Below, piece by piece: positions 5,885 to 30,013 of a DNA stretch of 62,932 bases; position 1 is the first letter of the stretch; every line of letters starts with the position of its first letter. The stretch is from assembly GCA_964503465.1 (NCBI GenBank), contig CAZCYZ010000003.1, forward strand, positions 1 to 62,932, written 5' to 3'. Source of the DNA: an uncultured Gammaproteobacteria bacterium. Lineage in GTDB: Bacteria > Patescibacteriota > Microgenomatia > UBA12405. The position numbers and the translations under genes are program-made. The notes beneath the pieces are model-generated. The model had not been told where the DNA came from, did no database searches, and was given only the letters and a program-made list of their open reading frames with translations.

Positions 5885-5892
5885 AGCCTATT

Positions 5893-6410: not shown

Positions 6411-6428
6411 CCCCTTATTATAGTCTAC

Positions 6429-7558: not shown

Positions 7559-7570
7559 AGTCTTCCTAAT

Positions 7571-8635: not shown

Positions 8636-8657
8636 CTAATTCTGGGGTTTATCCCCA

Positions 8658-8679
8658 CCCCGATCGATTAGCATCGGGG
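8658..8679. repeat. family-B hairpin repeat
   Basis: CCCCGAT-cgattagc-ATCGGGG, ~25 nt upstream of the GTG start of 7571..8635 and just downstream of the adenosyltransferase stop. Confidence 0.55.
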
Positions 8680-8687
8680 CAAATATC

Positions 8688-9107
8688 CTATTTTTTTTCT
8701 TCTTTTAATGCTAACAAATAAAGATAATCCGACAACCGATTAAGATAAATTATCACATCTTTATTACTTTTTGCCGACACCGCTCGTCGTTCTGCTCTCC
8801 TGGCGACCGTTCTGGCCCAATTAATTTTAACCGCCTTTTCTTTTTCAAATATCACAAACTGACTCTTCGGCTTCAACTCTTTCCACAATTTATCAATTTC
8901 TTTCTCCAGATTTTTAATCTTTTGGCCCATCGGTTCTCGAGCCATTATCTCTCCCAACTCTTCTGTCAACGATTTAATCCCCATCACCATCAGTACCGCC
9001 TGTAATTCATCTAAGTTCCCAAGCATTTCAACCACATCACTATCTTTGGCCACTCTTTTACCAAAATAATCCGTCATCCCCCTGTCACCTTTCTTAGTTG
9101 TAATCAC
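8688..9107 (-). CDS. pduO: ATP:cob(I)alamin adenosyltransferase, PduO type (short form)
   Basis: N-terminal TKKGDRGMTDYFG...VAKDSDVVEMLGNLDELQ, plus ARRAERRAV and LNRLSDYLYLLA motifs typical of PduO-type adenosyltransferases. 139 aa. Confidence 0.8.
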   Translation of the reverse strand: MITTKKGDRGMTDYFGKRVAKDSDVVEMLGNLDELQAVLMVMGIKSLTEELGEIMAREPMGQKIKNLEKEIDKLWKELKPKSQFVIFEKEKAVKINWARTVARRAERRAVSAKSNKDVIIYLNRLSDYLYLLALKEEKK

Positions 9108-9138
9108 AGTCGAATTTTTTAATTTAAAATTTATAATT

Positions 9139-9262
9139 TCTCCCCTTCTTCATCAAACCCCTCACCCCTCCGGGGAGCTCCCCTTGACAAAGGGGAGCAA
9201 TTTCTAAGCTCCTGCCCTTTTCAAGGGAAGATGTCCCGAGTCTATCGAGGGACAGAAGGGTT
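9139..9262. repeat. cluster of family-A palindromic repeats filling the pduO-nrdJ intergenic region
   Basis: Consecutive hairpins: GCTCCCCTT-GACA-AAGGGGAGC (9177-9198), CCCTT-TTCA-AGGG (~9213-9229), GTCCCGAGTCTATCGAGGGAC (~9233-9252). Confidence 0.7.
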
Positions 9263-9267
9263 TAAGT

Positions 9268-11844
9268 TTAACTGCATTTACTATATCCACAATAATTATT
9301 ACTACACTTAAAACATCCCTCCTCGGCATACAACGGACTACCACAGTCAGGACAACTGGAGAATTTACTTTCCTCTTCCGCCTGTCTAGTTCTAATCTCC
9401 GTCAAAAAATTTACCTGCTTTGCCGGCTCTTCCACTGGTACTGTTGTCGATACTGCCGGCACTTCCAGTTTTATTTTTTCCTCCTCAAACAAATTCAGCT
9501 GCTCCCCTTTAGAAATCTCCAACAACGATTTTCCCACTGCATCAAACATGCTCAACACCGCTCCTACCCCCAACCCCACCCTTTGCCCGCAAGATATCCC
9601 CACCAACTCTTCAGCAATTTCCTCCAAATTGGCTCCGTATTTAAGCGCCAAGGACGCCAGTCTTCCGGTTACTTCGGCCGATCCTGCCAAATAGCCCCCA
9701 GACTTTCCCAAAGTTACAAACACCTCCACTGGTCCATTTCCCTGCTCAAAAAATACCGAAGTGTACACCTTACCTACATCACAGGCTTTCCGCAATCTCA
9801 CCCCCCTGGCCGCTTCAGGCGTCTTCTTTTTAACTGACTTTACAATTTCATCTCTAATAATTTCTGCTTTTCCATTTCCTTTCGATACTTGCATCACTTC
9901 CTTTTCCCGACTACCACTTCGATAAATCGTAATCCCCTTTGTTCCCAAACTATACGCCAATCTATATGCCATTCGCACCTCATCCACCGTTGCTGCTTTG
10001 GGAAAATTAATCGTTTTGCTTACCGCATTATCAATGTACTTTTGAAACGCTGCCTGAATTCTAATATGCCATTCCGGAACAATCTCCAACGCCGTTCGAT
10101 AGATATTCTTTATATCATCCGGTAATTCCTCGATCCCCTCAAGCTTCCCTCCATTTTTGATTATTTTCTCCACCAACACCTGGTTGTAGAGATCGCGTCT
10201 TTTTAATTCCTCCACAAAAATTGGATTCAATACCTCCAACTTTTTCCCCTCAACTGTATTTTTTTGATAACCCAACGAAAACACCGGCTCAATTCCAGAC
10301 GATGTATCGGCAATCATGCTAATCGTTCCGGTCGGGGCAATGGTCGTTAATGCCATATTCCTTGGTCTATAGGCCGTTTTCCCATAAACACTCTCCTCCC
10401 AGGCAGGAAACACTCCCCTGTCCCTCCCCAATTCCACTGTCGCCTCTTTCGCTTTATCAGCTACAAACTTCATCACCTTTTCCGCCCACTCCACTCCCTC
10501 TTCCGAATCATACCGTACCCCAAGCTTAAACAACATATCCGCAAAACCCATTACCCCCAAGCCAATCCTTCGAGTCTTACTCACCATCTCGGCAATTTTT
10601 TCAATCGGAAATTCATTAATTTCTACAATGTTGTCCAAAAAATGCACCGCCTCTTTGACCACCCCTTCCAGCTCGTTCCAGTCTAAATCCCTTTCCCCCT
10701 TGGGGCCTTCCCCTTTGACAAAAGGGGAACTCTTTTTGTCTCCCCTCCTTTCCTCAAAGGAGGAGCTGGGGGTAGATTTTACAAACTTTGCCAAATTAAC
10801 ACTCCCCAAATTACAGGCATCATAAGGCAACAACGGCTGTTCACCACAAGGATTAGTTGCCTCAATCCTCCCCAAACTCGGCACTGGATTACTTGTCGAC
10901 TCGTTCATTCTGTCAATAAACACCAACCCCGGATCACCATACTGCCATGCCAATCGAGTAACCAAATTAAATACTTTATAAGCGTTCAGCCTCCCCGTCA
11001 CTTCTCCTGTTCTTGGATTCACCAACCCATACCCCTCCCCCTCTTTGGTCGCCGCCGCCCAATCATAAAGTTTTTCCACCAATCCCTCTATTTCCCTCAA
11101 TCTAGCGTCAACGTCACGACTAGTCTGAGCTATTCTAATTCTTTCTATTATTTCTTCTGGTATCTCGTCGTCATCACAGAATTTTTTATCCTTTTCTGCT
11201 ACCGTCATAAAATCATTAGTTACTGCCAAAGAAATATTAAAATTTGTCAAGGAAAACTCATCTAATTTCGCTACCGCAAAACGCAACACGTCTGGATGAT
11301 CTATCGCCAGCATCCCCATATTCGCCCCACGCCGTACTCCACCTTGTTTTATCTGCGACGTCACATCGTTGTAGGCCTGCATAAAACTCACCGGACCAAC
11401 CGTTGTTCCCCCCGACGAGGCAATATAATCCCCACTCGGTCGCAGCCTCGAAAAAGAAAATCCTGTTCCCCCACCACTTTTGTGAATCATCGCCATGTCC
11501 TTCATTGTTTGCAATATCGACTCCATTGAATCTTCAATTGGCAACACAAAACAAGCCGACAATTGTTGTCGTCTCTTGCCTGCATTCACCAAACAAGGGG
11601 TGTTTGGGAAAAACTGTTGTCCCGCCATCATCTCGTAGAACACCTTTGCTTGTTTTTCCACCTCTTCTTCACTTCTTTCAAAATTTTTGTCTCCGTTAGC
11701 CACGTTAATTGCCACCCGCCAAAAAATATCTTTCACTTTTTCAACCGGTTTACCATCTTCTCCCTTCATCGAATACCGACTCTCGGCAATGTATTTTGCA
11801 TTCTCCGACATTACCGGCTCCGTTAGTTGACTCTTATCGACCAT
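9268..11844 (-). CDS. nrdJ: adenosylcobalamin-dependent (class II) ribonucleotide reductase
   Basis: 858 aa. Active-site region NPCGEQPLLPYDACNLGSVNL and a C-terminal Cys-rich tail CPDCG...CFKCSNNYCGYSKCS. Overlaps nrdR by 11 nt. Confidence 0.92.
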   Translation of the reverse strand: MVDKSQLTEPVMSENAKYIAESRYSMKGEDGKPVEKVKDIFWRVAINVANGDKNFERSEEEVEKQAKVFYEMMAGQQFFPNTPCLVNAGKRRQQLSACFVLPIEDSMESILQTMKDMAMIHKSGGGTGFSFSRLRPSGDYIASSGGTTVGPVSFMQAYNDVTSQIKQGGVRRGANMGMLAIDHPDVLRFAVAKLDEFSLTNFNISLAVTNDFMTVAEKDKKFCDDDEIPEEIIERIRIAQTSRDVDARLREIEGLVEKLYDWAAATKEGEGYGLVNPRTGEVTGRLNAYKVFNLVTRLAWQYGDPGLVFIDRMNESTSNPVPSLGRIEATNPCGEQPLLPYDACNLGSVNLAKFVKSTPSSSFEERRGDKKSSPFVKGEGPKGERDLDWNELEGVVKEAVHFLDNIVEINEFPIEKIAEMVSKTRRIGLGVMGFADMLFKLGVRYDSEEGVEWAEKVMKFVADKAKEATVELGRDRGVFPAWEESVYGKTAYRPRNMALTTIAPTGTISMIADTSSGIEPVFSLGYQKNTVEGKKLEVLNPIFVEELKRRDLYNQVLVEKIIKNGGKLEGIEELPDDIKNIYRTALEIVPEWHIRIQAAFQKYIDNAVSKTINFPKAATVDEVRMAYRLAYSLGTKGITIYRSGSREKEVMQVSKGNGKAEIIRDEIVKSVKKKTPEAARGVRLRKACDVGKVYTSVFFEQGNGPVEVFVTLGKSGGYLAGSAEVTGRLASLALKYGANLEEIAEELVGISCGQRVGLGVGAVLSMFDAVGKSLLEISKGEQLNLFEEEKIKLEVPAVSTTVPVEEPAKQVNFLTEIRTRQAEEESKFSSCPDCGSPLYAEEGCFKCSNNYCGYSKCS
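10690..10770. repeat. family-A palindromic repeat copy inside the nrdJ coding sequence
   Basis: CCCC-CTT-GGGG, TTCCCCTTT-GAC-AAAAGGGGAA (10708-10729) and CTCCTT-tcctca-AAGGAG. Read in frame on the minus strand as ...KSTPSSSFEERRGDKKSSPFVKGEGPKGER... Confidence 0.65.
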
Positions 11845-14208: not shown

Positions 14209-14634
14209 ATGGCCAGAAAAGTCAAAACTATCATCAAATTAGCCATCCAAGCTGGTATGGCCAATCCTGCTCCTCCAGTCGGTACCGCCCTCGGTCCTCA
14301 AGGTATCAAAATCATGGATTTCTGTAACGAATTTAACGAGAAAACCAAAGACCTCAAAGGTTCTCTTATTCCCGCGGTTATTACCATCTACGACGACCGT
14401 TCCTTCAGTTTCATCATCAAAAAACCCCCAGTTTCCAACATGATCAAAAAAATTATTGGTCTTGACAAGGGCGCCGCTACTACCGGCAAAGAAAAAGTTG
14501 GCAAAATTACCATGGCCCAAGTCGAAACCGTTGCCAAGGACAAGTTGGTTGATTTAAATACCACCGATCTTGAAGCCGCCAAACGCATGGTTATTGGTAC
14601 CGCCACCTCCATGGGTGTCGAGGTAGTCGAATAA
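14209..14634 (+). CDS. rplK: 50S ribosomal protein L11
   Basis: 141 aa. IKLAIQAGMANPAPPVGTALGPQGI is characteristic of L11. Confidence 0.97.
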   Translation: MARKVKTIIKLAIQAGMANPAPPVGTALGPQGIKIMDFCNEFNEKTKDLKGSLIPAVITIYDDRSFSFIIKKPPVSNMIKKIIGLDKGAATTGKEKVGKITMAQVETVAKDKLVDLNTTDLEAAKRMVIGTATSMGVEVVE

Positions 14635-14638
14635 CCCT

Positions 14639-14872
14639 ATGAGCCAAACCAGATTCTACGAAATTCCACTTAAAATTCTACAAGAACATCCCCTATTATG
14701 GGTTCAACGCAATCAAGATAACCAACCTAACGCTACATTTTGTGGCGCCCCAGGTATACGTGCCCAACGACCATGCCGCTTAATCAATCCCTCACAAGTC
14801 ACTGCTCTCGCCAACACCGTCCAAAGCGTCGGATCCGCGGCCACCTGTCACGAATGTTGCTCATCTAGTTAA
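14639..14872 (+). CDS. small 4-Cys protein candidate (paralogue of 15625..15843)
   Basis: 77-aa ORF starting 4 nt after the rplK stop. Cys pattern TF-C-x10-C-x23-C-x-E-C mirrors the ORF after rplA. The region is unusually G-rich for the plus strand. Confidence 0.35.
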   Translation: MSQTRFYEIPLKILQEHPLLWVQRNQDNQPNATFCGAPGIRAQRPCRLINPSQVTALANTVQSVGSAATCHECCSSS

Positions 14873-14886
14873 TAATTAAATCCAAA

Positions 14887-15621
14887 ATGCCTAAAAAAAC
14901 CACAAAAATCCAAAAAGAGACCAATGTGGAAGTCATCAAAGACGAAACCAAGGTCATAGAAAAAACCGAGGAAACTCAAAACACCCCGGTCGAAGAAGTT
15001 AAAGAAGAAACTAAAACTGTCAAAGCAGCTAAGATCCGTGGCAAAAAATATCAAGCCGTCAAAAAACTTGTCGATGTCACTAAGTTTTATCCTCTTTCTA
15101 CCGCTGTTGAATTGGTCAAAAAAGTTTCTTTGTCCAAGTTCGAAGGTAAAATTGAAGCTCATCTTACCGTTTACGACATCGGCAATGTCGGCGACATCAC
15201 CTTCCCCCACCTTGAAACCGCCAGCAAAAAAATTGTTATTTTAAACGACACTATTCTCGCCAACATCAAAGATGGCCAAATTGACTTTGATGTCTTAATT
15301 GCTACCCCGGCCACCATGCCCAAACTTTTACCCTTTGCCCGCACCCTCGGACCCAAAGGCTTAATGCCCAACCCCAAAGCTGGTACCCTCACCGACAAAC
15401 CCGAAGAAGCTCTTAAACGACTATCTGTTGCCAAAACAGTTATCAAAACCGAGAAAAAAGCTCCAGTAATTCATATTATCGTCGGTAAAGTCAACCAATC
15501 CGACAAAGAATTAATTGCCAACGTCGAGGAACTAATCAAGGTGGTTAAACCTTCCAAAATCAAAAAGCTGGTTCTTTGTCCCACCATGGGTCCTTCCGTC
15601 AAGGTCGAAGTTGTCAAATAA
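14887..15621 (+). CDS. rplA: 50S ribosomal protein L1 (with ~45-aa Lys/Glu-rich N-terminal extension)
   Basis: 244 aa. The canonical L1 start (RGKKYQAVKKLVDVTKFYPL) begins near residue 50. GPKGLMPNPKAGT motif is present. Confidence 0.95.
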   Translation: MPKKTTKIQKETNVEVIKDETKVIEKTEETQNTPVEEVKEETKTVKAAKIRGKKYQAVKKLVDVTKFYPLSTAVELVKKVSLSKFEGKIEAHLTVYDIGNVGDITFPHLETASKKIVILNDTILANIKDGQIDFDVLIATPATMPKLLPFARTLGPKGLMPNPKAGTLTDKPEEALKRLSVAKTVIKTEKKAPVIHIIVGKVNQSDKELIANVEELIKVVKPSKIKKLVLCPTMGPSVKVEVVK

Positions 15622-18934: not shown

Positions 18935-19883
18935 TTTATCGCTATCTATCTACCTAACCGACGTTTGCAATCTCAACTGCAAGCACTGTTTCCTTAAAGC
19001 CTCTCCACGGGGTAAGCAACACCTTAGTTGGGAACAAATCAAAACCACCCTCGACTACTACCGTCAACAAAACTGCCAAATCGTTGAATTTACTGGCGGG
19101 GAAGCCTGTCTATCCCCCTTTGTTCGTCGAGCTGTTACCTACGCTCGAAAAATTGGCTATCCATCAATTGGCATCAACACCAACGGCATCACTTCCAAGG
19201 TAATTGACTTATTTAGTCCTCAAGAACTTGACAAGATTACTTTCAGTTTGGATGGGGCTACTCCTAATATTCATGACATTATTCGTGGTCAAGGTTCCTT
19301 CAAAAAAACTATCGCCACCATTAATCAGGCTATCACCCTTGGTTTTAACGTCGAAGTTATTTTCACTGTCAATCGCTATAACCAAAACCAAACCAAAACC
19401 ATCGTCCAACTTCTCGACAAAATGAAAGTTACCAAACTTAGCTTCAATTATATCTCCCCTATTGGCAACGCCCAACAAAACCCCGACGTACTCCTTTCCC
19501 CCAAAGACTGGATCAAGGTTCGATCAAGAATTGAATCCATTAACAACCTTAAATTCCTCACCATTAGATACCCCCCAATGTTTGTTTCAAAAACCGAGTA
19601 CAACACAATGATTACCCAGGGTTATCATTGTGTTCTTGCCAACGCCTCCAAAAACGAAGTTCGTCCCGATGGCAACATTTACCACTGCTGTCTTACTGTT
19701 GAAAACCCTCAAGTTGTCGGTGGTCACGCCAAAAATAACCATATTATTCTCGACAAGAAAGAGGAGATCAATTACCTCGAGTTACACTACAATTCCCCCT
19801 GTCCCGCTCGGGTCCAATCTCCATCACCCGACCTTATTCCCATATGTGTCTACTATAAAAAAATTATTGAGCCCCAATCGTAG
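18915..19883 (+). CDS. radical SAM protein with Cys-rich C-terminal (SPASM/twitch-like) region
   Basis: CNLNCKHC (Cx3Cx2C) at residues ~18-25, then GGEA. C-terminal cysteines are YHC, YHCC, SPCP and PICV. Confidence 0.8.
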   Translation: MKIESTILSLSIYLTDVCNLNCKHCFLKASPRGKQHLSWEQIKTTLDYYRQQNCQIVEFTGGEACLSPFVRRAVTYARKIGYPSIGINTNGITSKVIDLFSPQELDKITFSLDGATPNIHDIIRGQGSFKKTIATINQAITLGFNVEVIFTVNRYNQNQTKTIVQLLDKMKVTKLSFNYISPIGNAQQNPDVLLSPKDWIKVRSRIESINNLKFLTIRYPPMFVSKTEYNTMITQGYHCVLANASKNEVRPDGNIYHCCLTVENPQVVGGHAKNNHIILDKKEEINYLELHYNSPCPARVQSPSPDLIPICVYYKKIIEPQS

Positions 19884-20877
19884 TATCAAAAAACGCCACC
19901 GTCTTTGCCACTCCCTCACTCCATCCGCCTTTTAAATTATGATCCGCTCCGGGGTAAACCACCAATTCTGCCTTCTTCCCCAAACCCTTTAGTCTATCTA
20001 CCAACGCCTGTTGCCACTCCACTTTGCACCACTCATCCGCCGTTCCCTGCAGAATTAGTATTGGTGCTCCAACCCAATCCAAATAATTCTCAAAAGCATA
20101 GCGTCTGGCGTCATAAGAGGTCAAAAACTTTTCAATTTCCCCCTTAACTGGACTCCCTTCATCAATGGTTGATAACACACTCTCTGGAAACTTCTGGGTC
20201 ATTGGTGCCCATAACACTGTCGGGTAACTTTCCCCGGTAATTTCTAGCGCCGACAGGACTATTTGACCACCGTTACTATGAGCCCAAATTCCAATGTTTT
20301 CCCTATCCACCCACGGTAAAGTTTTTATTGTTTCAATCAAATCTAAAAGGCTCACTACTTTTTCAAATCTTGCCTCCAACACATCAGTCGACTCCCCCTC
20401 ACTCCCCCCATAGCCTAAAAAATCAATACTTATGGTCGCATACCCCTCTTTGGCTAATTCATCTGCCACCCGCCATGTCCCCGATCCAGAATAATATCCC
20501 ACCGTTTCGGCATAACCCCGCACCGTCACAATTACCTTCGACAAACTTGATTTTTCTGGATGATAATTAATCATTCCCGTGATCCACTTACCATTACTCA
20601 GAAATCTAATTTGCCGGGTATCAAAATCATATTTATCTGTTCTCCTATCCTCCACCTCTTTTATCTTCCCCAGAATCTCCATCTTGTACAGGCGAACCGA
20701 TGTGTTCGCCCTTCCTTGCCTTAGGCTATCAAAATCATACTTCTCCAAATTCTTTATCTGCATCGGTTTCTGGTTCCCTTTTGGATCCAATCTCCCCGTC
20801 ACCCACCGCCACCCCATCAACGCTCCTCCAACCAATAACGCCAATATTACCATCACTGCAATTTTCTTTATCACCAA
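19864..20877 (-). CDS. membrane-anchored alpha/beta hydrolase (dienelactone hydrolase / S9-like)
   Basis: N-terminal TM helix. Nucleophile elbow GIWAHSNGG, with Asp in GTADEW and His in GADHNL. Confidence 0.75.
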   Translation of the reverse strand: MVIKKIAVMVILALLVGGALMGWRWVTGRLDPKGNQKPMQIKNLEKYDFDSLRQGRANTSVRLYKMEILGKIKEVEDRRTDKYDFDTRQIRFLSNGKWITGMINYHPEKSSLSKVIVTVRGYAETVGYYSGSGTWRVADELAKEGYATISIDFLGYGGSEGESTDVLEARFEKVVSLLDLIETIKTLPWVDRENIGIWAHSNGGQIVLSALEITGESYPTVLWAPMTQKFPESVLSTIDEGSPVKGEIEKFLTSYDARRYAFENYLDWVGAPILILQGTADEWCKVEWQQALVDRLKGLGKKAELVVYPGADHNLKGGWSEGVAKTVAFFDTTIGAQ

Positions 20878-20900
20878 CTTATTGTACTATTTAATAAAGA

Positions 20901-23441
20901 ATGGTCACTCTCTTCCTCTTTTTAATTCTCTTACTTTGTCCCACTCCCACCCAAGCCGCCTACTATAGTTATCCCTTCGCTACTCAAACCGTCGACGCTA
21001 TCTCTCGCCAGAAAATGCAAATTCCTCAAGGTATTTATGATTCTGTTTCCAATAAGACCTTCATTGTTTACCCTGCCGGAGTTACCTCTAGTGGGCTTTC
21101 CGAAGTCTCACCCTACATTATTAGTTACAGTCACACCACTCACTCTTGGTCCTCACCGGTCAAAATTATTACCTCCCCACACCCACCCGACTCTCACAAT
21201 TATCCCCAGCTACTAATTGACAGTAACGGCTATCTGCACGTCTTTCAAACATTCCACGGTCAACCTATACTTCATGCTACCTCCAGCAATCCCCGCGATA
21301 TCTCTCAATGGAACTTTAGCTACCTCACCGGAGTTAGTGCCACCTATGGTGCTGCTGTTAAAGCCAAAAACGGTGATTTCTACCTTTTTTTTAGAAACGG
21401 TCTTAGTGGTGGCAGCAGTGGGCCCTCCGGCTGGCACGAACCAGAATACTACTACAAATCCACCAACAATGGTGCCAACTGGACCCTCCATTCACTCATC
21501 GACCCACTTAAAAACTCCGACGGTTGGAACACTATCTACGTTAAATCTCTTCACTACGAATCAAACCCAGAAAGAGTTCACATTGTCTTTGCGCTTACCT
21601 ACAATCATAACGATAAATTCAAAAAACACTATTACGTTTTTTTCAACCTAAACAACAATCACATATATTCTGCTAATGGCCAAGATTATGGCACCACTAT
21701 CGATCGCAATGAATTCCAAAGTAACTGCGAATTATACAGCTACTCACAACCACTAAACTTCAACGACTACGGTAACACTCACACCGCTTTTTACCTCGAT
21801 AACAACGGCAAACCTAATGTTTTCTATAACAAATATATTCCTGGTCAATCACAACTCGCCCACAGCCAACTCTGGTGGGCCAAATGGGATGGTTCCAACT
21901 GGCAACACCAACATCTCAGTAATTTCGATGAGGTTGTTGGTCCAATGGATGTTAAATATATCAACGACTCCAATATTGACCTTTTTATAAGTAAGTGGGA
22001 TGGAGCCACAATACCAGGAATTATCTATCACTATAATGGAAGTAGTTGGACACAATCATGGCGCTCAGACCTGACGCCACCACCATACCATTTTACTTAC
22101 ATTTACGACTCACACCCTGATATTACCGCCACCTTTTATCAAAGTGATTACCAGGGATGGAACACCCCAAAACCAATCGGCACCTTTCATGTCTTTGGTA
22201 ACAATAATTTTTCGTCATCCTGCCCAGCTCCCAACTTCAAACACTATCGTTGGTCAGGCTCACCCCACTTTGTTTTCCCAACCAACTCACCTTGCGATCA
22301 ATACTCCATTGGCTCAAAAACACCATCAAGTGGAGAAATTTACTCACCTTTAACCCAAGTCCAACCTAATACTACTTACACTATTAGTTATCAAGTAAAA
22401 ACTGAATCAGTTGCTTCTACTGCCCCATTTGTGGCTACAGTTCTGGTTTCTGAATACAATTCTTCTGCCAAGGAGTCAGACTCCATCAATCAAAGTCGCA
22501 CTCACGATGGCCAAAGAACCAATGTTCCCAAGGTAACTGGCACCACTAATTGGCAAACCAAACAATATACCTTCACCACTCTTTCCAACACCAAATACAT
22601 TCGTTTCCGTCGAGTCAATGCCGCTTGGGGGGAGGCTAGTGGTGAAACCTATTTTAAAGACGTCAAACTGTCCGTTCCTACCCCTACTTCAACTCCCAAA
22701 CCCAGCAACACCCCCACCCCAACTCCTACCTCTCCAGGTTGTCCAACCTCTACCGACAAAAGTTATCGTTGGTCAGGCACACCCAACTTTACTTACCCCA
22801 AGACTACACCATGCGATCAATATTCTCTTGATTCGGATACCCCATCAAGTGGAGAAATTTATACCCCTCTAACTACAGTCTCGCCCAATACTACTTACAC
22901 TATCAGTTATCAAGTCAAGACAGAATCAATCGCTTCCATTGCACCTTTTGTTGCCACTGTCCTAGTTTCTGAATACAGTTCTTCCGCCAAAGAAACTGAC
23001 CTTGTCAATCAAAATCGCACTCACGATGGCCAAAGAACCAACATTCCCCAAGTTACCGGCACTACTAATTGGCAAACCAAACAATACACTTTTACCACTC
23101 TCTCCAACACCAAGTATGTTCGTTTCCGCCGAGTCAATTCCGCTTGGGGGGAGGCCATCGGAAAAGTCTATTTTAAAAACATTCAATTGGTTGCCTCGAT
23201 ACCCACCAACACCCCCAAACCAACTAATACTCCAACTAAAACCCCCACCAAAGTTCCTACCACTCCTCCCAAAAAATTAGGTGATGCCAATGGTGATGGT
23301 AAAGTAAACCTTCTTGATTTTGGTACTTGGAAGACTGAATACCTTACCAAAACCGGACTCAATTCTGATTTTGATAAGAATAATAAAGTCAATATTGCTG
23401 ATTTTGCGATTTGGAAAACCGAGTATTTGAAAACTAAATGA
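20901..23441 (+). CDS. secreted BNR/Asp-box beta-propeller-like protein with two tandem CBM-like modules, Pro/Thr linker and C-terminal dockerin
   Basis: Signal peptide MVTLFLFLILLLCPTPTQA. DSHNYPQLLIDSNGYLHVF and the Asp-box-like STNNGANWT. Two ~150-aa repeats. PTNTPKPTNTPTKTPTKVP linker. GDANGDGKVNLLDF...SDFDKNNKVNIADF dockerin. Confidence 0.75.
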   Translation: MVTLFLFLILLLCPTPTQAAYYSYPFATQTVDAISRQKMQIPQGIYDSVSNKTFIVYPAGVTSSGLSEVSPYIISYSHTTHSWSSPVKIITSPHPPDSHNYPQLLIDSNGYLHVFQTFHGQPILHATSSNPRDISQWNFSYLTGVSATYGAAVKAKNGDFYLFFRNGLSGGSSGPSGWHEPEYYYKSTNNGANWTLHSLIDPLKNSDGWNTIYVKSLHYESNPERVHIVFALTYNHNDKFKKHYYVFFNLNNNHIYSANGQDYGTTIDRNEFQSNCELYSYSQPLNFNDYGNTHTAFYLDNNGKPNVFYNKYIPGQSQLAHSQLWWAKWDGSNWQHQHLSNFDEVVGPMDVKYINDSNIDLFISKWDGATIPGIIYHYNGSSWTQSWRSDLTPPPYHFTYIYDSHPDITATFYQSDYQGWNTPKPIGTFHVFGNNNFSSSCPAPNFKHYRWSGSPHFVFPTNSPCDQYSIGSKTPSSGEIYSPLTQVQPNTTYTISYQVKTESVASTAPFVATVLVSEYNSSAKESDSINQSRTHDGQRTNVPKVTGTTNWQTKQYTFTTLSNTKYIRFRRVNAAWGEASGETYFKDVKLSVPTPTSTPKPSNTPTPTPTSPGCPTSTDKSYRWSGTPNFTYPKTTPCDQYSLDSDTPSSGEIYTPLTTVSPNTTYTISYQVKTESIASIAPFVATVLVSEYSSSAKETDLVNQNRTHDGQRTNIPQVTGTTNWQTKQYTFTTLSNTKYVRFRRVNSAWGEAIGKVYFKNIQLVASIPTNTPKPTNTPTKTPTKVPTTPPKKLGDANGDGKVNLLDFGTWKTEYLTKTGLNSDFDKNNKVNIADFAIWKTEYLKTK
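22221..22673 (+). repeat. CBM-like module, tandem copy 1 (coding repeat)
   Basis: CPAPNFKHYRWSGSPHF...YFKDVKLS aligns along its full length with copy 2. Confidence 0.8.
22740..23189 (+). repeat. CBM-like module, tandem copy 2 (coding repeat)
   Basis: CPTSTDKSYRWSGTPNF...YFKNIQL. Long identical stretches with copy 1 (NTTYTISYQVKTES, APFVATVLVSEY, VTGTTNWQTKQYTFTTLSNTKY). Confidence 0.8.
23202..23441 (+). repeat. 240-nt Pro/Thr-linker + dockerin cassette, copy 1
   Basis: Aligns base for base with 24991-25230, with only scattered substitutions. Confidence 0.9.
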
Positions 23442-23466
23442 TGTCACTATACTATTAAATAAGCAG

Positions 23467-25230
23467 ATGATCACTATTCTCGTCCTATTCTTTCTCGTTT
23501 TCTTTTTCTTTCACCCTCCCCTTGCCGCCGGCGACGGCTTTACTCTCGATAATGCCGGCATCTCCAAAGTCCATCAGTCATCAATTCCTCACATCGCCAA
23601 AAACGGCACCATCCAGCAATCCCACACCACCGATTCTTTTATCCCCATCGCTATGTGGGGCAATGATTTTGGTCGATACGATTCCTACAACTGGAATTAT
23701 TACCAACTAAATGACAATATTTCCCGCGACACCACTCCCAACTTGGTTGAAGCCGGTTTTAATGCTGTCTTCACTCATGTTTCCAACGATATCATGGCCC
23801 TCCTTCAGGATCGAAATCTCAAAGCCTTTTACGGTGTCTACTGGTCAGGCATCTGGCAGTACGAAAAGGGCGACACCAACTGGGACACCCTCAAAACCAC
23901 CATCAACAAACTCAAAAACCACCCCACCACTATCGGTTACTACCTCTACGATGAACCCGATAATGTCCCCGATTTCGAGTGGAGCACTCTTCAAAAAGCC
24001 TATCAAATCATCAAGGCCATCGACCCAAACCGTCCCATTTTCGCTAATTTCATTGGTGGCAACTGCGACGCCCCCAGCATCACCTCGTTTAACAATACTG
24101 CTGTCGCCGATTTTTATCCCTTTCACCACACCGGCGATAGCACCGAAGGTCTGGGTGATAATCTAAACTTTTTAAACTGCTTTGGCCAGAGTAAAGAAAC
24201 CACTCCTTTCTTTCCTATCCTTCAAGCCTACAGTGGTGGCCGCGAAACCAATCCAACCATCATCCCCACCAAACAACAAATGCGAAACCAAATCTATCTG
24301 GCTCTGACTCGAGGTGCTACCGGTTTCTGGCTGTTCACCCACCACGATCCTTGGCGTCTCGACGAAGGCACTAATAAGTGTCGCACTATAACTTGGACTC
24401 AACCCTGTGAACATTTAGGGGGTATTAGCAAAGAATTTACTCCCGAAATCTGGAATGAGGTCATCAAAATTAATACCGAAATTAATACCTACAAAAAGAT
24501 CATTCTTTCCAAAACCGCCGCTGACGTTTACGATGTTTACCTCAAATATTACGGCCGAACCGAACACCCAATTAAGACAATCCTCAAAAACGCCAATGAT
24601 GGCGATTCTCGTTACCTTTTGGCTGTCAGTACTGCCACCGACTACGTTCAAAGCCGTTTTGAATTCGCTAATAACGTTTATGCTGTTACCTCGCTTCTTG
24701 ATAATCGTACCATCACTCCGTCCGGTAAAACCTTTACTGATGGCTTTACCAATCTAGACGTTCGACTCTACCGCATCGACTTTAGCCCCTACGCCACTCC
24801 CACCTCTTGTCCCACCGAAAAAACCTACAACGACACCAACCCAACCAATATCAAAAATTACTGTCAGGCCGTGGGGTTAAATTGTCAATATTATCCATCA
24901 TCAATTTCCTGCCACTCCGGTGCTGGCAGCTGGACTAATTTTGGTTCCAGTTGTACTGCTCCTTATTGCAACGGCTGTGCTTGTGTCACCCCCACCAACA
25001 CCCCCAAACCAACTAATACGCCAACTAAAACCCCCACCAAAGTTCCTACCATTCCTCCCAAAAAATTAGGTGATGCCAATGGTGATGGTAAAGTAAACCT
25101 TCTTGATTTCGGTACTTGGAAAACTGAATACCTTACCAAGACAGGTCTCAATTCTGATTTTGATAAGAATAATAAAGTCAATATTGCTGATTTTGCTGTT
25201 TGGAAGGCGGAATATTTGAAGACTAAATGA
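23467..25230 (+). CDS. secreted putative glycoside-hydrolase-like (TIM-barrel-like) protein with Cys-rich module, Pro/Thr linker and dockerin
   Basis: Signal-like N-terminus. GYYLYDEPDN motif reminiscent of clan GH-A enzymes (weak). Cys-rich CPTEK...CNGCAC block. Same linker and dockerin as the upstream gene. Confidence 0.6.
   Translation: MITILVLFFLVFFFFHPPLAAGDGFTLDNAGISKVHQSSIPHIAKNGTIQQSHTTDSFIPIAMWGNDFGRYDSYNWNYYQLNDNISRDTTPNLVEAGFNAVFTHVSNDIMALLQDRNLKAFYGVYWSGIWQYEKGDTNWDTLKTTINKLKNHPTTIGYYLYDEPDNVPDFEWSTLQKAYQIIKAIDPNRPIFANFIGGNCDAPSITSFNNTAVADFYPFHHTGDSTEGLGDNLNFLNCFGQSKETTPFFPILQAYSGGRETNPTIIPTKQQMRNQIYLALTRGATGFWLFTHHDPWRLDEGTNKCRTITWTQPCEHLGGISKEFTPEIWNEVIKINTEINTYKKIILSKTAADVYDVYLKYYGRTEHPIKTILKNANDGDSRYLLAVSTATDYVQSRFEFANNVYAVTSLLDNRTITPSGKTFTDGFTNLDVRLYRIDFSPYATPTSCPTEKTYNDTNPTNIKNYCQAVGLNCQYYPSSISCHSGAGSWTNFGSSCTAPYCNGCACVTPTNTPKPTNTPTKTPTKVPTIPPKKLGDANGDGKVNLLDFGTWKTEYLTKTGLNSDFDKNNKVNIADFAVWKAEYLKTK
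24991..25230 (+). repeat. 240-nt Pro/Thr-linker + dockerin cassette, copy 2
   Basis: Near-identical to 23202-23441. Its last 162 nt are essentially identical to 26439-26600. Confidence 0.9.
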
Positions 25231-26600
25231 TAGGCATTATTTTACTGGTCATAATACTCTCCCTGGCACATCCGTCTCCTGGCTTTTCAACTTTTTCGAC
25301 AACTCCAATAGTTAAAAAAGTTATGGTCGTTGATCTGAATCCATCTGTATCCAGTCAAGGAGGCCAACGTATTCGAGAAATTAAACATTGGAACGATCCC
25401 AAGACACTAGAAACCACTTTTATTGAAAATATTAGACAAGCTAGCGGTGGTTATCTCAACTATCAAATCGTCCAACGAATTGACAATGAAGACTGGCTTC
25501 CCCCTTTTAAAGATGGCTATCAACATACAGGAGACACCCTGCTACAAGCAATAAATAATCCTTCTGCTCGACATCTGCCTGACAAAATGAACTACAACGT
25601 CCTTCTTAACCGCTATCAGATTTGCGACAAGGTCAATTCAGGCGAGGTGGATGAGGTCTGGTTTTGGTTACTCCCCTGGACTGGAGCTTACGAAGCCATT
25701 ATGACCGGTAATGGAGCATTTGATACCAACGGTCCCCCCCTCTCGTCTAGTTGTATTCGCAAAACTCACCTCATGGCCTTCAACTGTGAACGCAGTGTAT
25801 CCGAAATGACCGAAAGCTACATTCACCGAATCGAAGGCACTCTCACCCATGTCTTTGACGAAGACCCATGCCACAACTCATCGATGAACACCGATTGGGG
25901 AAAGTTTGGCACTTACGACAAGAGAAATCCCAACAAAGCTGGCTGTGGCTGGTCTCATTACCCTCCCAACGGTACTAGTGATTATGATTGGGACAATACA
26001 AACCATGTTACTACCAATTGTAACGACTGGCTCAATTATCCAAATATTACTGGGTCAACACAAAGTTTAAATTGCCAAGAATGGGGCTGCCACAGTACAG
26101 GATTCTATGCCTGGTGGCTTAATCGCCTTCCCAAGTCAAACGGTTCAACCAAAAACAAGTCCAACAACTGGTGGCAGTATATTGCCGACTATGACTGCGT
26201 CACTAAAAACATTTGCCCCACTTCCGCCCCCGTCCCCACCTCAACCCCCAACTGCGTTAAAAACCACTCCAATGCTGTAACTGATAAAACTCAGTGCTGT
26301 ACCGGAGATGCCGAATTAGTACCTTACGCCGGACTAATTTGTTGTGGAGGCATAAATGATGTAGTCGACAATAACACCGAATGTTGCTCGAACCTCACCA
26401 CCCAACCCAACCAAGAAAAATTTAAATGTATTTTTACTGGTGATGCCAATGGTGATGGTAAAGCAAACCTTCTTGATTTCGGTACTTGGAAAACTGAATA
26501 CCTTACCAAGACAGGTCTCAATTCTGATTTTGATAAGAATAATAAAGTCAATATTGCTGATTTTGCTGTTTGGAAGGCGGAATATTTGAAGACTAAATAA
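25227..26600 (+). CDS. secreted hypothetical protein with Cys-rich module and C-terminal dockerin
   Basis: ATGA start/stop overlap with the upstream gene. Hydrophobic N-terminus. Catalytic region unrecognised. C-terminus GDANGDGKANLLDF...NNKVNIADF. Confidence 0.6.
   Translation: MIGIILLVIILSLAHPSPGFSTFSTTPIVKKVMVVDLNPSVSSQGGQRIREIKHWNDPKTLETTFIENIRQASGGYLNYQIVQRIDNEDWLPPFKDGYQHTGDTLLQAINNPSARHLPDKMNYNVLLNRYQICDKVNSGEVDEVWFWLLPWTGAYEAIMTGNGAFDTNGPPLSSSCIRKTHLMAFNCERSVSEMTESYIHRIEGTLTHVFDEDPCHNSSMNTDWGKFGTYDKRNPNKAGCGWSHYPPNGTSDYDWDNTNHVTTNCNDWLNYPNITGSTQSLNCQEWGCHSTGFYAWWLNRLPKSNGSTKNKSNNWWQYIADYDCVTKNICPTSAPVPTSTPNCVKNHSNAVTDKTQCCTGDAELVPYAGLICCGGINDVVDNNTECCSNLTTQPNQEKFKCIFTGDANGDGKANLLDFGTWKTEYLTKTGLNSDFDKNNKVNIADFAVWKAEYLKTK
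26439..26600 (+). repeat. 162-nt dockerin cassette, copy 3
   Basis: Essentially identical to 25069-25230 by eye (one visible difference, gta vs gca). Confidence 0.9.
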
Positions 26601-26636
26601 TCACCAGTCTCGTCAACATCAGTTATCATTATTACA

Positions 26637-28403
26637 ATGTTAATCATTGGTTCTCTGATTCTCCTTCTTGTTGTTTTCCCCCACCATATTAAAGCCTACT
26701 CCCCCGACCCACAATATATTTTCGTCCGTAAGGACAATATGTGTTCAAATTGTATTCTTTGGAACGGCTACTACCCCGAAAATTACAACGATGCCGCTGT
26801 CGATCAAATACTTAACACCATTGGCACCAAAGGAACCGACCAAAGAAAACTCGGTGTCGGATCACTTTGGACTTACCACCTGACCGATCTCAATCGAATG
26901 AAACAATCCATGCAAAAAATGCTTGATCTTTCCCTGGCCCGGAACTTCCCGATATTCATTTCTCTTGATGGTTTTCAGTGGTGGGACAATCTAAAAAACC
27001 TTTGGAATTGGTGGGACCCAAGTGACCCTGCTACCTACAACCCCGAAAACAAAAACAATGTCGAATGGACCTCTTGGAATCCAAATGATGCTATCAAAAT
27101 TTCCTGGAGGAGTTGGGGTAAACAATTACGGGTCAAGCCCCATCCCAACATTGCCAGCCCGGCATTTATTCAAGCAAACAAAGACGCTCTCAAAAATCTT
27201 GTTCCCATTATTGTCAACTGGTACAACAACCTGCCTGATAACAAAAAATACCTTCTCGGTGGTGTCAGTTTTAGTCAGGAGGTCGATATCGGCGTTAACT
27301 ATACCTATTACAAAGACGGCAACAGTTATCTTGGCAAGCCAGAATCCAGTGATCCAGATGAAACGAATTTTCTCAAAGACTCAGTTCAACTGGGCTATGC
27401 CGCTGTCAAAACTGCCGGCCTCAAATCCTCTGGCGCTCTTACTGAAGATGACCTTGATACGGTCGTTAGAAACTATATCGAAGAACTAAATTCTTATGCC
27501 GTTAGTCTAGGCATACCTCGACACAAAATCTTCAATCAGGTTGGCGGCAAAGGTTTTGCTCCTTTTGAACACCCCTCAAACCTCGTCTTTAGCACTGCCA
27601 AAGCCTCAATTACTCCCCACGGCAATCCTGGCTGGAGTTTCTATGCCGGAGTGGCTGAAAACGCTGCCACCTACCCTGCCCTCACCGAAGCTCTCAATCT
27701 TTCTGGTAACTCACTTTGGGGCTCGCCTGAATATTTACCCTACAAACGCGACCGCCAAGGCTGGATTGATTCTCTTCGAAATTCTCTTAATTTTAGAAAT
27801 AATAAATTTATTAATATCACTAGCTGGGAAGGAATCCTTGGTGGCAAAGATGTTTATGCTCCAGCCGTCGGTGCCATTCGCCAAGTCCTCAACGAAACAC
27901 CAGTTTGTGTTTTGGGCACTCCTCAAATTAACCGACCCATTGCTGTTTCCGGTAGCCAGTTTACCCTAAACTGGACCCAATCTGCCGACACTCTTGCCAC
28001 TTACATTAATTGTGCCAATTCGCCAAAACTTACTAATCAGGGAACATTTAACCCAGCCAACATTGTCGTCAACCAGATGACCACTGAAACTAGCTTTCAA
28101 AAAAGTGGCTTTAATAATGGCACCTATTATTGCCAGGTAATCACCGATGGCTGTGACCCGGCCAAAAGAACTCTTTCTGAAATTGTTTCCTTTACTATCG
28201 GTTCCTCTCCCTCCCCTACCCCAAAACCCATCATTCCCGGTGACACTAATTCCGACGGTAAAGTAAATATTAGTGATTTTGGTGTTTGGAAAACTCAATA
28301 TCTTACTAAGACCGGACTAACTGCTGATTTCAATTCCAATGGCAAAATAGATATTGGTGATTTTGGCATTTGGAAGGCGGAATATTTGAAGACTAAAATT
28401 TAA
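26637..28403 (+). CDS. secreted hypothetical protein (Trp-rich glycan-enzyme-like domain, Ig/FN3-like module) with diverged C-terminal dockerin
   Basis: Hydrophobic N-terminus. DGFQWWDNLKNLWNWWDP region. C-terminus GDTNSDGKVNISDF...ADFNSNGKIDIGDF (two Dx[ND]x[DN]G loops). Confidence 0.6.
   Translation: MLIIGSLILLLVVFPHHIKAYSPDPQYIFVRKDNMCSNCILWNGYYPENYNDAAVDQILNTIGTKGTDQRKLGVGSLWTYHLTDLNRMKQSMQKMLDLSLARNFPIFISLDGFQWWDNLKNLWNWWDPSDPATYNPENKNNVEWTSWNPNDAIKISWRSWGKQLRVKPHPNIASPAFIQANKDALKNLVPIIVNWYNNLPDNKKYLLGGVSFSQEVDIGVNYTYYKDGNSYLGKPESSDPDETNFLKDSVQLGYAAVKTAGLKSSGALTEDDLDTVVRNYIEELNSYAVSLGIPRHKIFNQVGGKGFAPFEHPSNLVFSTAKASITPHGNPGWSFYAGVAENAATYPALTEALNLSGNSLWGSPEYLPYKRDRQGWIDSLRNSLNFRNNKFINITSWEGILGGKDVYAPAVGAIRQVLNETPVCVLGTPQINRPIAVSGSQFTLNWTQSADTLATYINCANSPKLTNQGTFNPANIVVNQMTTETSFQKSGFNNGTYYCQVITDGCDPAKRTLSEIVSFTIGSSPSPTPKPIIPGDTNSDGKVNISDFGVWKTQYLTKTGLTADFNSNGKIDIGDFGIWKAEYLKTKI
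28239..28403 (+). repeat. dockerin cassette, diverged copy 4
   Basis: Same module order as copies 1-3 but clearly diverged at the DNA level, except the last ~35 nt (ggaaggcggaatatttgaagactaaa). Confidence 0.7.
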
Positions 28404-28684: not shown

Positions 28685-28879
28685 AGTACCTCCTTCGTTA
28701 CCTCAATTTCCCATCTCAAAACAGCCGTTTTGAAACCAGAAACTCCGGTAACTCAAAATTTTAACCACCCATTCTACACCAGCTACTTTACATTGACCAC
28801 CCCCCTAGGCTATAATCCCCCCTGTACTACCAAAGACAGTAGGTACAAAAATAAATCCTACCGAGGCGATACATTTATT

Positions 28880-28903
28880 CCTCGCGTAGTCGCGAGGTTT
28901 TTT
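28880..28903 (+). terminator. intrinsic terminator-like hairpin inside the rplJ leader
   Basis: CCTCGCG-tagt-CGCGAGG followed by TTTTTT. No plus-strand gene lies upstream for it to terminate. Confidence 0.5.
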
Positions 28904-28956
28904 AGTTTTTTTAGGTAAAATTTGAAGTAAAATGCTAAATTTTACCTAAAAACACA

Positions 28957-28978
28957 ATCCCGATCGAAGCATCGGGAT
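28957..28978 (+). repeat. family-B hairpin repeat in the rplJ 5' UTR
   Basis: ACACA-ATCCCGAT-cgaagc-ATCGGGAT-AG ends 7 nt before the rplJ ATG. Homologous to the minus-strand copy upstream of leuS. Confidence 0.7.
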
Positions 28979-28985
28979 AGACCAT

Positions 28986-29522
28986 ATGAAAAACAAACAA
29001 ATCAAAATCGAAACCGTCGACAAAATTGCTGCTGATCTGCAGGCCGTCAAATCCGCCGCTCTGGTTCAGTACCAAGGCCTCAATGCCGCTGACACTGTCC
29101 TGATGCGTTCGAAAGTCAAATTAGCCGGTGGCCGTCTTGAAGTCACCAAAAACTCTCTTATCTCCCGGGCTCTGGAAAAAATTGGTATCAAACTCCCCGA
29201 GGAACTAACCGGCCCAACTGCCATCACCTACTGCGACACCGACGAAATTGCTCCTCTCAAGGAAATCGAAACTATTAACAAGTCCAAGGAAAAAACCAGC
29301 TTCAAATATGGCATCTACAACGGTCAGTTACTATCAGTTGACGAGTTAAAAAAGTTTCTTTCCCTCCCCTCCAAGTCAGCCCTTATTGTCCAGCTTCTTG
29401 GTGATCTTCAAAATCCTCTTCGTCGCCTTTCCTACGCCCTTCGCTACAATCAAACTCGCTTGGTTCTCGCCCTCAAAGCCGTGGCTGAAAAACAAAACAA
29501 ACCCTCCCCAACCCTCCCTTGA
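28986..29522 (+). CDS. rplJ: 50S ribosomal protein L10
   Basis: 178 aa, L10-like throughout and followed by rplL. The last codons and the TGA stop lie within a family-A repeat. Confidence 0.92.
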   Translation: MKNKQIKIETVDKIAADLQAVKSAALVQYQGLNAADTVLMRSKVKLAGGRLEVTKNSLISRALEKIGIKLPEELTGPTAITYCDTDEIAPLKEIETINKSKEKTSFKYGIYNGQLLSVDELKKFLSLPSKSALIVQLLGDLQNPLRRLSYALRYNQTRLVLALKAVAEKQNKPSPTLP

Positions 29523-29580
29523 CAGGGCGGGAGTTGTCTTACTTTCTCCCCTATCAAGGGGAGAACACAAGAGGGGTTTA
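29501..29580. repeat. family-A palindromic repeat copy at the rplJ 3' end and rplJ-rplL spacer
   Basis: CTCCC-TTGACAGGGC-GGGAG (~29514-29532) and TCTCCCCT-ATCA-AGGGGAGA (~29545-29564). Confidence 0.65.
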
Positions 29581-29620
29581 AAATAAAAATTAAAAATTAT
29601 TAATTAAAAATTAAATTCAT

Positions 29621-30013
29621 ATGTCCGATAAACTAACCAAAATAATCGACCAAATTTCTGAATTGTCAGTCATCGAACTCGCTGACCTGGTCAAATCGAT
29701 CGAAGAAAAGTTCGACGTTAAGGCTGTCGCTATGGCCGCTCCTGCCGCTGGTGCTCCTGCTGCTGGTGCTCCTGCCACTGGTGCCGCTCCGGCTGAGGAA
29801 AAAACCGAATTTGATGTCACTATCACTTCTGCTGGTGCCAACAAAATCGCCGTCATCAAAGTTGTTCGCGAGTTCAAGCCAGAACTAGGCCTCAAAGAAG
29901 CCAAAGATATGGTTGATGCTCCCCCAGCTTCCCTTGGCACTATGAAGAAAGATGCTGCCAACGATGCCAAAACCAAGCTTGAAGCCGCTGGAGCGCAGGT
30001 TGAGTTAAAGTAA
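29621..30013 (+). CDS. rplL: 50S ribosomal protein L7/L12
   Basis: 130 aa. Ala/Pro hinge [20 protein letters not shown] and C-terminal domain [25 protein letters not shown]. Confidence 0.97.

Follow-up and report, generated by a model that had tools for sequence, protein, structure and literature searches.

Four tandem genes for secreted-type, putatively glycan-directed proteins with a shared C-terminal dockerin in a probable Microgenomates genome

Bacteria in the candidate phyla radiation (CPR) carry very small genomes and are believed to draw their living from other cells or from cell remains, and the acquisition of sugars by these bacteria is poorly known. The closest described systems to the locus considered here are the clostridial cellulosome (Clostridium thermocellum, CipA) and two reports of dockerins nearer to its own lineage. 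Genes coding for cohesin and dockerin domains are reported to be expressed in the Microgenomates bacterium 'Ca. Shapirobacterales' BG1-G2 and have been read as a cellulosome-like capacity (PMC9123182), and SEML1_0315, a dockerin protein of the Saccharibacterium Southlakia epibionticum, has been described as an essential envelope component with a speculated function in host-glycan targeting (PMC10633639). A published relative with the same type of strand-skewed genome was reported without secreted glycoside hydrolases (PMC7143001). Here we describe a cluster of four genes (genes 1-4) in a stretch of 62,932 nucleotides of contig CAZCYZ010000003.1, hereafter the window, whose products carry signal-like N-termini, different large domains and one common type of C-terminal dockerin. 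The best explanation of the cluster is that it probably codes for exported glycan-directed enzymes held through this dockerin on one partner.

All four plus-strand open reading frames (ORFs) recognised in an earlier sequence-only reading of this DNA were present with the lengths given there (846, 587, 457 and 588 aa), and the two-repeat F-hand dockerin proposed for each of them was confirmed. Against the gathering score of Pfam PF00404 (Dockerin_1, 22.9 bits), the modules of genes 1, 2 and 4 passed the threshold and that of gene 3 missed it at 19.7 bits; the gene 3 dockerin differs from that of gene 2 in only 2 of 54 residues. Each dockerin consists of two 12-residue calcium loops, and the alignment shows Asp or Asn at positions 1, 3, 5, 9 and 12 in all eight loops. 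With Dockerin_1 matches present and the calcium-coordinating positions conserved, the two points on which the earlier assignment had been made to depend, the dockerins are genuine. Genes 1 and 2 carry the loops DANGDGKVNLLD and DFDKNNKVNIAD, gene 4 carries DTNSDGKVNISD and DFNSNGKIDIGD, and the first loop of gene 3 reads DANGDGKANLLD. Each loop is followed by a helix with the pattern F-(G/A)-x-W-K-x-(E/Q)-Y-L, and the AlphaFold2 (AF2) models contain the paired helices at residues 415-429 and 443-456 of the gene 3 product and at residues 545-557 and 573-587 of the gene 4 product. The module is type-I-like and compact (46 residues aligned to 52 positions of the Pfam model) and forms the C-terminal end of the protein, preceded in genes 1 and 2 by the Pro/Thr-rich (PT-rich) linker PTNTPKPTNTPTKTPTKVPT that had been noticed in the first two genes.

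Outside the dockerin and the linker, genes 1-3 are mutually unrelated, as are the N-terminal domains of all four proteins. When the family of gene 2 was compared with that of gene 4 by hhalign, the match was confined to the dockerin, and the two barrels are hence not detectably related. The dockerin DNA (last 162 nt), on the contrary, is homogenised among genes 1-3, with identities of 92.6% for genes 1 and 2, 90.1% for genes 1 and 3 and 97.5% for genes 2 and 3, versus approximately 75% for each of them against gene 4; over the four genes the identities range from 67 to 96% in protein and from 73.5 to 97.5% in DNA. The similarity of genes 1 and 2 spans 241 nt and includes the linker. These values point to gene conversion or recent module exchange among genes 1-3, as expected if all four proteins must fit one partner. 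Judged from the identity of the dockerins, the cluster would combine several different enzymes with one shared dockerin specificity.

The product of gene 1 was previously read as a BNR propeller-like domain followed by two modules resembling carbohydrate-binding modules (CBMs), and our profile searches support this architecture. The BNR_4 family (PF15892) was matched at 75.7 bits (threshold 27.3), and Pfam identified CBM_4_9 at residues 470-568 and CBM_4_9_1 at residues 643-763, a duplication which is also visible in the DNA as a direct repeat (D2, 300 nt, 77% identity). The N-terminal blades matched the ulvan lyase 5uam of polysaccharide lyase family 25 (PL25) with an E-value of 5.5e-15, good alignment being limited to residues 47-169. 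Gene 1 keeps the His at the position which is changed from His to Asn between the deposited PL25 sequences 5uam and 5uas (motif DSHNYP), and, in the alignment to both, it also keeps the His of the TFHG/GGHG motif. The profile score and the two His residues mark gene 1 as a BNR_4/PL25-type beta-propeller. Weaker matches were obtained to the BT3686 family, which is of glycoside hydrolase (GH) 145 type. Characterised relatives in PL25 and GH145 act on rhamnose-uronic-acid linkages.

The GH-like domain with a YLYDEPD motif, suggested earlier for gene 2, gained support from remote relatives. A word-indexed search of 5.8 billion proteins returned only two relatives, one of which ends in a dockerin of the W-K-x-E-Y-L type, and an exhaustive profile search collected 1806 proteins at E<=1e-3, with 29 of them reaching E<=1e-30; gene 2 thus represents a rare family. 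Among 77 remote relatives scanned against Pfam, matches were found to Glyco_hydro_42 (13), Glyco_hydro_2_C (5) and DUF4434 (5), and the Glu of the motif is nearly invariant across the relatives from the profile search. Gln253, within PILQAY, is invariant. Gene 2 itself matched no GH family of Pfam and gave weak matches to PDB structures of GH2, GH5 and GH158 over residues 125-221. By this transitive evidence, the domain is probably a divergent barrel of the clan GH-A type. Cys-rich spacers of about 70-75 aa were observed ahead of the linker or dockerin in genes 2 (24802-25020) and 3 (26208-26435), the Cys positions of the gene 2 spacer being conserved with P0002 and P0003; both spacers may represent disulfide-rich mini-modules.

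For gene 4, described at first as a Trp-rich unknown with an Ig-like module, the Ig-like module held and the remainder proved to be a GH-like (beta/alpha)8 barrel. The AF2 model (predicted local distance difference test score, pLDDT, 93.3; predicted TM-score, pTM, 0.86) consists of this barrel, an Ig-like sandwich and the dockerin, and Foldseek related it with a probability of 1.00 to BuGH158, GH66, GH42 and GH1 at approximately 9% identity; the Ig-like module had local matches to fibronectin/Ig-like domains over about 104 columns. The N-terminal domain matched no family of Pfam or NCBIfam, and its family profile matched no PDB chain. The likeness to GH158 and other CAZy TIM-barrel families is thus at the level of fold, with no membership by sequence profile, and gene 4 with its 401 homologues forms an unclassified family of its own. 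The closest full-length homologues often carry a dockerin, and the named ones belong to Gottesmanbacteria, Woesebacteria and Patescibacteria.

The "unknown Cys-rich domain" formerly assigned to gene 3 is only partly retained, as its Cys-rich part is a spacer of about 75 aa modelled with low confidence, and the unknown part is a folded alpha/beta domain of about 300 aa. The AF2 pLDDT exceeds 90 at residues 30-320 and falls below 50 at residues 328-403; the Cys-rich spacer there is predicted to be disordered (pLDDT below 40). The first ~325 residues belong to a family of hypothetical proteins of 330-360 aa (47 at E<=1e-3), the named members of which include metagenome-assembled genomes (MAGs) of Anaerolineales; cell-wall-binding repeats are attached to one member and leucine-rich repeats to another. 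The domain matched no Pfam family, and no PDB entry by sequence or profile. Foldseek returned only weak metzincin-like neighbours (E ~1e-3, TM 0.2-0.4), and H200, E203 and H244, conserved in the family, hint at a metal site. A metalloprotease assignment was considered and rejected, since the matches to ADAM and snake-venom metzincins were weak and the HExxH motif is absent; it is kept as a low-confidence hint. Gene 3 codes for a conserved, probably extracellular alpha/beta domain, possibly a metal-dependent hydrolase.

Hydrophobic, signal-like N-termini are present on all four proteins, as had been observed before. Motifs located after the signal region are conserved between the window proteins and their homologues (KKV.V.D.N in gene 3, DPQYIF in gene 4). 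The public call of gene 4 (554 aa) begins at Met35 and omits both the hydrophobic N-terminus and the conserved PQYIF motif (26637-26738); since it cuts off a motif conserved in the family, the 588-aa ORF is the better gene model. The four genes are co-directional with gaps of 25, -4 and 36 nt, the negative value being the 4-nt ATGA overlap of the gene 2 stop and the gene 3 start, that is, the coupled gene pair of the earlier description. Same strand and short gaps suggest an operon-like arrangement. Promoter-like and terminator-like sites around the cluster were not more frequent than in shuffled sequence. The coordinates of the genes and their modules are collected in Table 1.

Table 1. Positions of the four dockerin genes, their modules and the scanned upstream stretches in the window
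Feature	Position	Strand	Description
Gene 1	20901..23441	+	846 aa; signal-like N-terminus, BNR_4/PL25-like beta-propeller, 2 CBM_4_9, PT linker, dockerin
Gene 1 BNR_4 propeller core	21162..21920	+	residues 88-340; Pfam
Gene 1 CBM_4_9-like duplicate	22221..23039	+	copies 22221-22520 and 22740-23039, PT-rich spacer between
Gene 1 dockerin	23277..23438	+	residues 793-846; Dockerin_1 24.8 bits
Gene 2	23467..25230	+	587 aa; signal-like N-terminus, clan GH-A-like domain, Cys-rich spacer, PT linker, dockerin
Gene 2 catalytic domain (putative)	23638..24792	+	residues 58-442; GYYLYDEPD motif, E163
Gene 2 dockerin	25066..25227	+	residues 534-587; Dockerin_1 25.1 bits
Gene 3	25227..26600	+	457 aa; signal-like N-terminus, alpha/beta domain, Cys-rich spacer, dockerin
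Gene 3 dockerin	26436..26597	+	residues 404-457; Dockerin_1 19.7 bits, sub-threshold
Gene 4	26637..28403	+	588 aa; signal-like N-terminus, GH-like (beta/alpha)8 barrel, Ig-like beta-sandwich, dockerin
Gene 4 Ig-like beta-sandwich	27924..28199	+	~residues 430-521; all-beta in AF2 model
Gene 4 dockerin, divergent copy	28236..28397	+	residues 534-587; Dockerin_1 24.6 bits
Start-upstream stretches scanned for GGAGG	20861-20900, 23427-23466, 25187-25226, 26597-26636		

The plus strand of the window (1-62932) contains 19127 C (30.4%) and 8458 G (13.4%), which corresponds to a GC skew of approximately -0.39. At 4-fold sites the skew amounts to -0.78 in genes of the plus strand and -0.62 in genes of the minus strand; as it is independent of gene orientation, it is attributed to mutational or replication asymmetry and not to a coding effect. 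The 4-fold-site skew of the dockerin genes (-0.71 to -0.83) is like that of other plus-strand genes, and the GC content of the cluster matches that of the rest of the window. Because they share the extreme skew of the replicon, the dockerin genes are regarded as resident and not as recent imports, and recent horizontal transfer of the cluster was rejected on composition. A disparity of G and C between the strands is a published trait of the Microgenomates order UBA1400, with 29.8% C and 15.0% G in 'Ca. Chazhemtobacterium' Ch65, and it occurs also in Collierbacteria and Beckwithbacteria (PMC7143001). Judged by the names of homologues together with the matching strand disparity, the genome is very probably one of Microgenomates/CPR, in agreement with the small, likely episymbiotic type of genome suggested by the sequence-only reading. 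For nine housekeeping proteins, eight 90%-identity clusters were obtained, none with a named close relative: seven were singletons, and the eighth contained only unnamed fragments of 52-53 aa.

Dockerin-ended genes in tandem are not confined to the window. A metagenome scan with the generic pattern GD[AT]N[GS]DGK, which returned dockerins 33-54% identical, revealed recurrent arrays of 3-6 genes (six at locus L008, five each at L009, L023 and L041, three at L016), and the dockerin pattern was found at three loci among GTDB representatives, the closest in a Patescibacteria MAG and two labelled as uncultured Gammaproteobacteria. The mean identity of dockerins is 70-100% within arrays versus 39-65% between arrays, and this higher likeness within an array would be the expected outcome of a partner specific to the locus or organism. 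The closest analogue is the array L041, with dockerins 50-60% identical to those of the window; gene 3 has an orthologue in the last position of this array (47% over 311 aa), and the other members of the array match DUF4185 (76.7 bits) or weakly resemble GH53 and GH71. A DUF8128/DUF87 ATPase gene (100-2427 of that locus) stands directly before this array and a phage-type integrase gene after it. The window codes at 38669-41098 on the minus strand for an 809-aa ATPase resembling type IV secretion system (T4SS) coupling proteins and HerA, with matches to DUF87, TrwB and T4SS-DNA_transf; the two ATPases are 43% identical over 812 aa. The adjacency of ATPase and dockerin array could reflect a functional link or only shared genome ancestry.

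Two further loci from the scans may be mentioned beside these arrays. In the Patescibacteria MAG (locus L003), a propeller resembling GH43 and GH32 that carries the Trp-type dockerin of the window genes is encoded at 5669-9939 between apparent dnaA and dnaN genes, and the strand skew of this locus is likewise strong (-0.37). At locus L007 (5423-6496 and 8001-9071), two dockerin genes with identical dockerins are each followed by a near-identical ORF of 357 aa starting with MADKSSATMHRQTPPPVKH, a pattern of a repeated two-gene unit.

In the reading that we prefer, the four modular proteins would be exported by the Sec pathway, and their common dockerin tail would dock in a calcium-dependent manner to one partner; the likeliest candidate is a module of the cohesin type, borne by a scaffold or cell-surface protein whose gene would lie outside the window. 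In this way a small cell dependent on external polymers (from a host, necromass or the environment) would keep a mixed set of glycan-cleaving enzymes on its surface, and gene conversion would keep the plug sequence uniform and thereby one binding specificity across unrelated enzymes. Such a cellulosome-like surface display is plausible. The earlier claim of a dockerin shared by a glycan-degrading set applies to genes 1, 2 and 4, which are carbohydrate-active-like, and does not demonstrably extend to gene 3.

Several observations weigh against this reading. The Pfam Cohesin family had no match in 34 window proteins (the four dockerin proteins and 30 others, together all non-housekeeping ORFs), in agreement with the sequence-only reading, which had seen no cohesin partner in the window, and a single-sequence probe, a cohesin of CipA confirmed by a 296-bit match to PDB 1aoh, gave no hit when six-frame ORFs from the window and from 48 fetched loci (512 kb) were searched (best E-value 0.037). 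Nor was a cohesin present among the examined neighbours of related dockerin arrays. A scaffoldin or anchor bearing cohesins in the same genome, as a cellulosome would have, was therefore not found within the window; the window is about half of the 118-kb contig, and the negative result holds for the window and the fetched loci. Many organisms, as Peer et al. are said to have described in 2009, carry dockerins without recognisable cohesins. On the side of the enzymes, the Glu of the D-E-P motif was found in gene 2 and no strand-7 nucleophile Glu could be assigned; gene 3 is not demonstrably carbohydrate-active, and since the only, weak structural neighbours of its domain are of the metzincin type, not every member of the cluster is shown to act on glycans. 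Position 301 of gene 4 is a Gln, the sole case, in place of the His present in 110 of 111 family members, and this change together with seven other departures from near-invariant residues implies that its activity may be altered. None of the four N-termini has Lys or Arg before the hydrophobic core, that is, a basic n-region, unlike the homologues of genes 3 and 4, which have ordinary signal peptides with a basic n-region at the same place. A Shine-Dalgarno-like GGAGG was absent within 40 nt upstream of each of the four start codons.

The main rival, which we consider unlikely on balance and yet serious, holds that these dockerins work independently of cohesins, in calcium-stabilised adhesion to glycans, to part of a pilus or S-layer or to the surface of a host cell, or in dimerisation. 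Apart from the failure to find cohesins in the window or beside related arrays, it is favoured by the subtype of the dockerin, which differs from clostridial type I in a shorter linker between the repeats and in a Trp that is invariant in each of the two helices, and by the host-cell glycan targeting that was speculated for the Saccharibacteria protein (PMC10633639). The strong homogenisation of dockerins within a locus, however, is a typical sign of binding to one specific protein, the window covers only a minor part of the genome, and cohesin domains have been reported in a Microgenomates MAG (PMC9123182). More speculatively, and with a still lower likelihood, the compact Trp-type dockerin might be a lineage-specific universal C-terminal tether of CPR/Microgenomates bacteria that binds a receptor other than a classical cohesin, situated either on the host cell or on the envelope or pilus of the bacterium itself. 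With such a tether, an ultra-small episymbiont could retain a varying complement of enzymes where the two cells meet, among them at least two GH-like families that CAZy and Pfam do not assign (genes 2 and 4) and an uncharacterised hydrolase fold (gene 3), and gene conversion would keep the tether uniform within each genome. The module might also be a C-terminal sorting tag read by an export or attachment machine, e.g., a DUF87/VirD4-like ATPase, in the manner of the C-terminal domain of the type IX secretion system or other C-terminal sorting signals. The almost constant location of the module at the very end of numerous secreted proteins that are otherwise unrelated and the ATPase gene directly before the five-gene array L041 would agree with this; we regard it as very improbable nevertheless, as the adjacency is a single case, the related ATPase of the window lies 10 kb off on the other strand, two proteins of L009 carry the dockerin near the N-terminus, all proteins already have Sec-type N-termini and the known dockerin fold fully explains the conservation of the calcium loops.

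Two other explanations concern the genes themselves. The G-depleting mutation pressure, manifested in the 4-fold-site skew, might be eroding them, so that some of the products would be decaying or non-catalytic pseudo-enzymes, retained for binding if they are retained at all. Of 61 near-invariant positions of its family, gene 4 deviates at 8 (rank 3rd of 111), H301Q among them, and gene 3 at 7 of 63 (rank 4th of 45), and many of these changes remove a G from the codon (R119L, D121N and W366Y in gene 4; G184A, G236N and G310N in gene 3), so that strand bias seems to push the protein sequence at conserved sites in both genes. Against decay stand the four intact ORFs (457-846 aa) with maintained dockerins, the retention of the invariant N141, E143, E215 and E365 of gene 4 and of the invariant residues of gene 3, and the high AF2 confidence for both proteins, and we judge decay to be improbable. 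A recently acquired mobile island with a foreign enzyme cassette appears the least credible of all. The cluster does lie within a region of ~13 kb that splits rplK-rplA from rplJ-rplL, and the related array L041 is followed by a phage-type integrase gene, but GC content and 4-fold skew match the window, and no integrase, tRNA or repeat boundary was seen at the flanks of the cluster in the window. We thus return to glycan-directed enzymes tethered by a shared dockerin to one partner as the reading of choice.

The surroundings of the cluster include a gene for a membrane-anchored alpha/beta hydrolase (19864-20877, minus strand) with matches to Hydrolase_4, Peptidase_S9 and DLH and a weak match to acetyl-xylan esterase. 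It is divergent from gene 1, and because the start codons of the two are only 23 nt apart, their promoters must sit in coding sequence. A 25%-identical homologue of this hydrolase was found at a distance of ~3 kb from the dockerin array L008. The ribosomal protein genes rplK-rplA (14209-15621) and rplJ-rplL with the L10 leader (28812-30013), usually neighbours, are ~13 kb apart here, and the DNA between them carries ddl, a murF-like ligase gene, a deoxyribosyltransferase-like gene, a radical SAM gene, the alpha/beta hydrolase gene and the four dockerin genes. A protein with an IS200-like Y1 transposase domain (Y1_Tnp, 32.2 bits) is encoded near the end of the window (61332-61790, minus strand).

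If the preferred reading of tethered, exported enzymes holds, a member of the strand-skewed group invests ~7.5 kb in putatively tethered, glycan-directed enzymes. The locus offers three uncharacterised putative catalytic domains (genes 2, 3 and 4) for biochemistry, as well as a defined dockerin sequence for fishing out the partner.

Compared with described enzymes, the closest structural neighbour of gene 4 is the endo-beta-1,3-glucanase BuGH158 (PDB 6pal; Foldseek E-value 8.7e-7, probability 1.00), which has a clan GH-A barrel and a C-terminal Ig-like domain. The two are alike in the layout of barrel plus beta-sandwich and differ in sequence (9% identity, no sequence-profile match), and the TM is only 0.28-0.40. 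Gene 1 resembles the PL25 ulvan lyase (5uam) and the BNR_4/GH145 enzymes (BT3686, PDB 5muk) in the N-terminal half of the propeller, in both motif His residues and in a BNR_4 score above threshold, and adds to these enzymes two CBM_4_9 modules and a dockerin.

The dockerin of C. thermocellum has ~34 residues between the starts of its loops. With ~28 residues, the dockerin of the window is shorter, and its helices carry the F/G/W-K-x-E-Y-L form in place of the clostridial recognition residues. The cluster shares with the clostridial cellulosome the diversity of secreted enzymes, the C-terminal duplicated F-hand dockerin with Asp/Asn calcium ligands, the Pro/Thr linker, the presence of CBMs and the near-uniformity of dockerins within one organism; it differs in that no scaffoldin, cohesin, S-layer homology (SLH) or sortase anchor was found at the locus, none of the four enzymes belongs to a classic cellulase family and the host is a CPR bacterium. 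With BG1-G2 it shares the CPR supergroup and the occurrence of dockerin proteins alongside glycoside hydrolases and polysaccharide lyases. Cohesins were found in BG1-G2, contrary to the window, and the report on that organism consists of domain annotations from omics tables and describes no locus architecture, tandem array or homogenised dockerins. SEML1_0315 resembles the window proteins as a dockerin on the envelope protein of a Patescibacterium for which no cohesin was described; it is a single protein with different attached domains, and the window holds a four-gene array. The novelty implied by the sequence-only reading is lowered accordingly, since comparable arrays recur elsewhere, and a dockerin in Saccharibacteria and cohesin and dockerin together in Microgenomates have been reported (PMC10633639, PMC9123182). 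The cluster thus extends a known theme, that of dockerin-tagged secreted proteins resembling carbohydrate-active enzymes outside classical cellulosomes, and does not open a new one.

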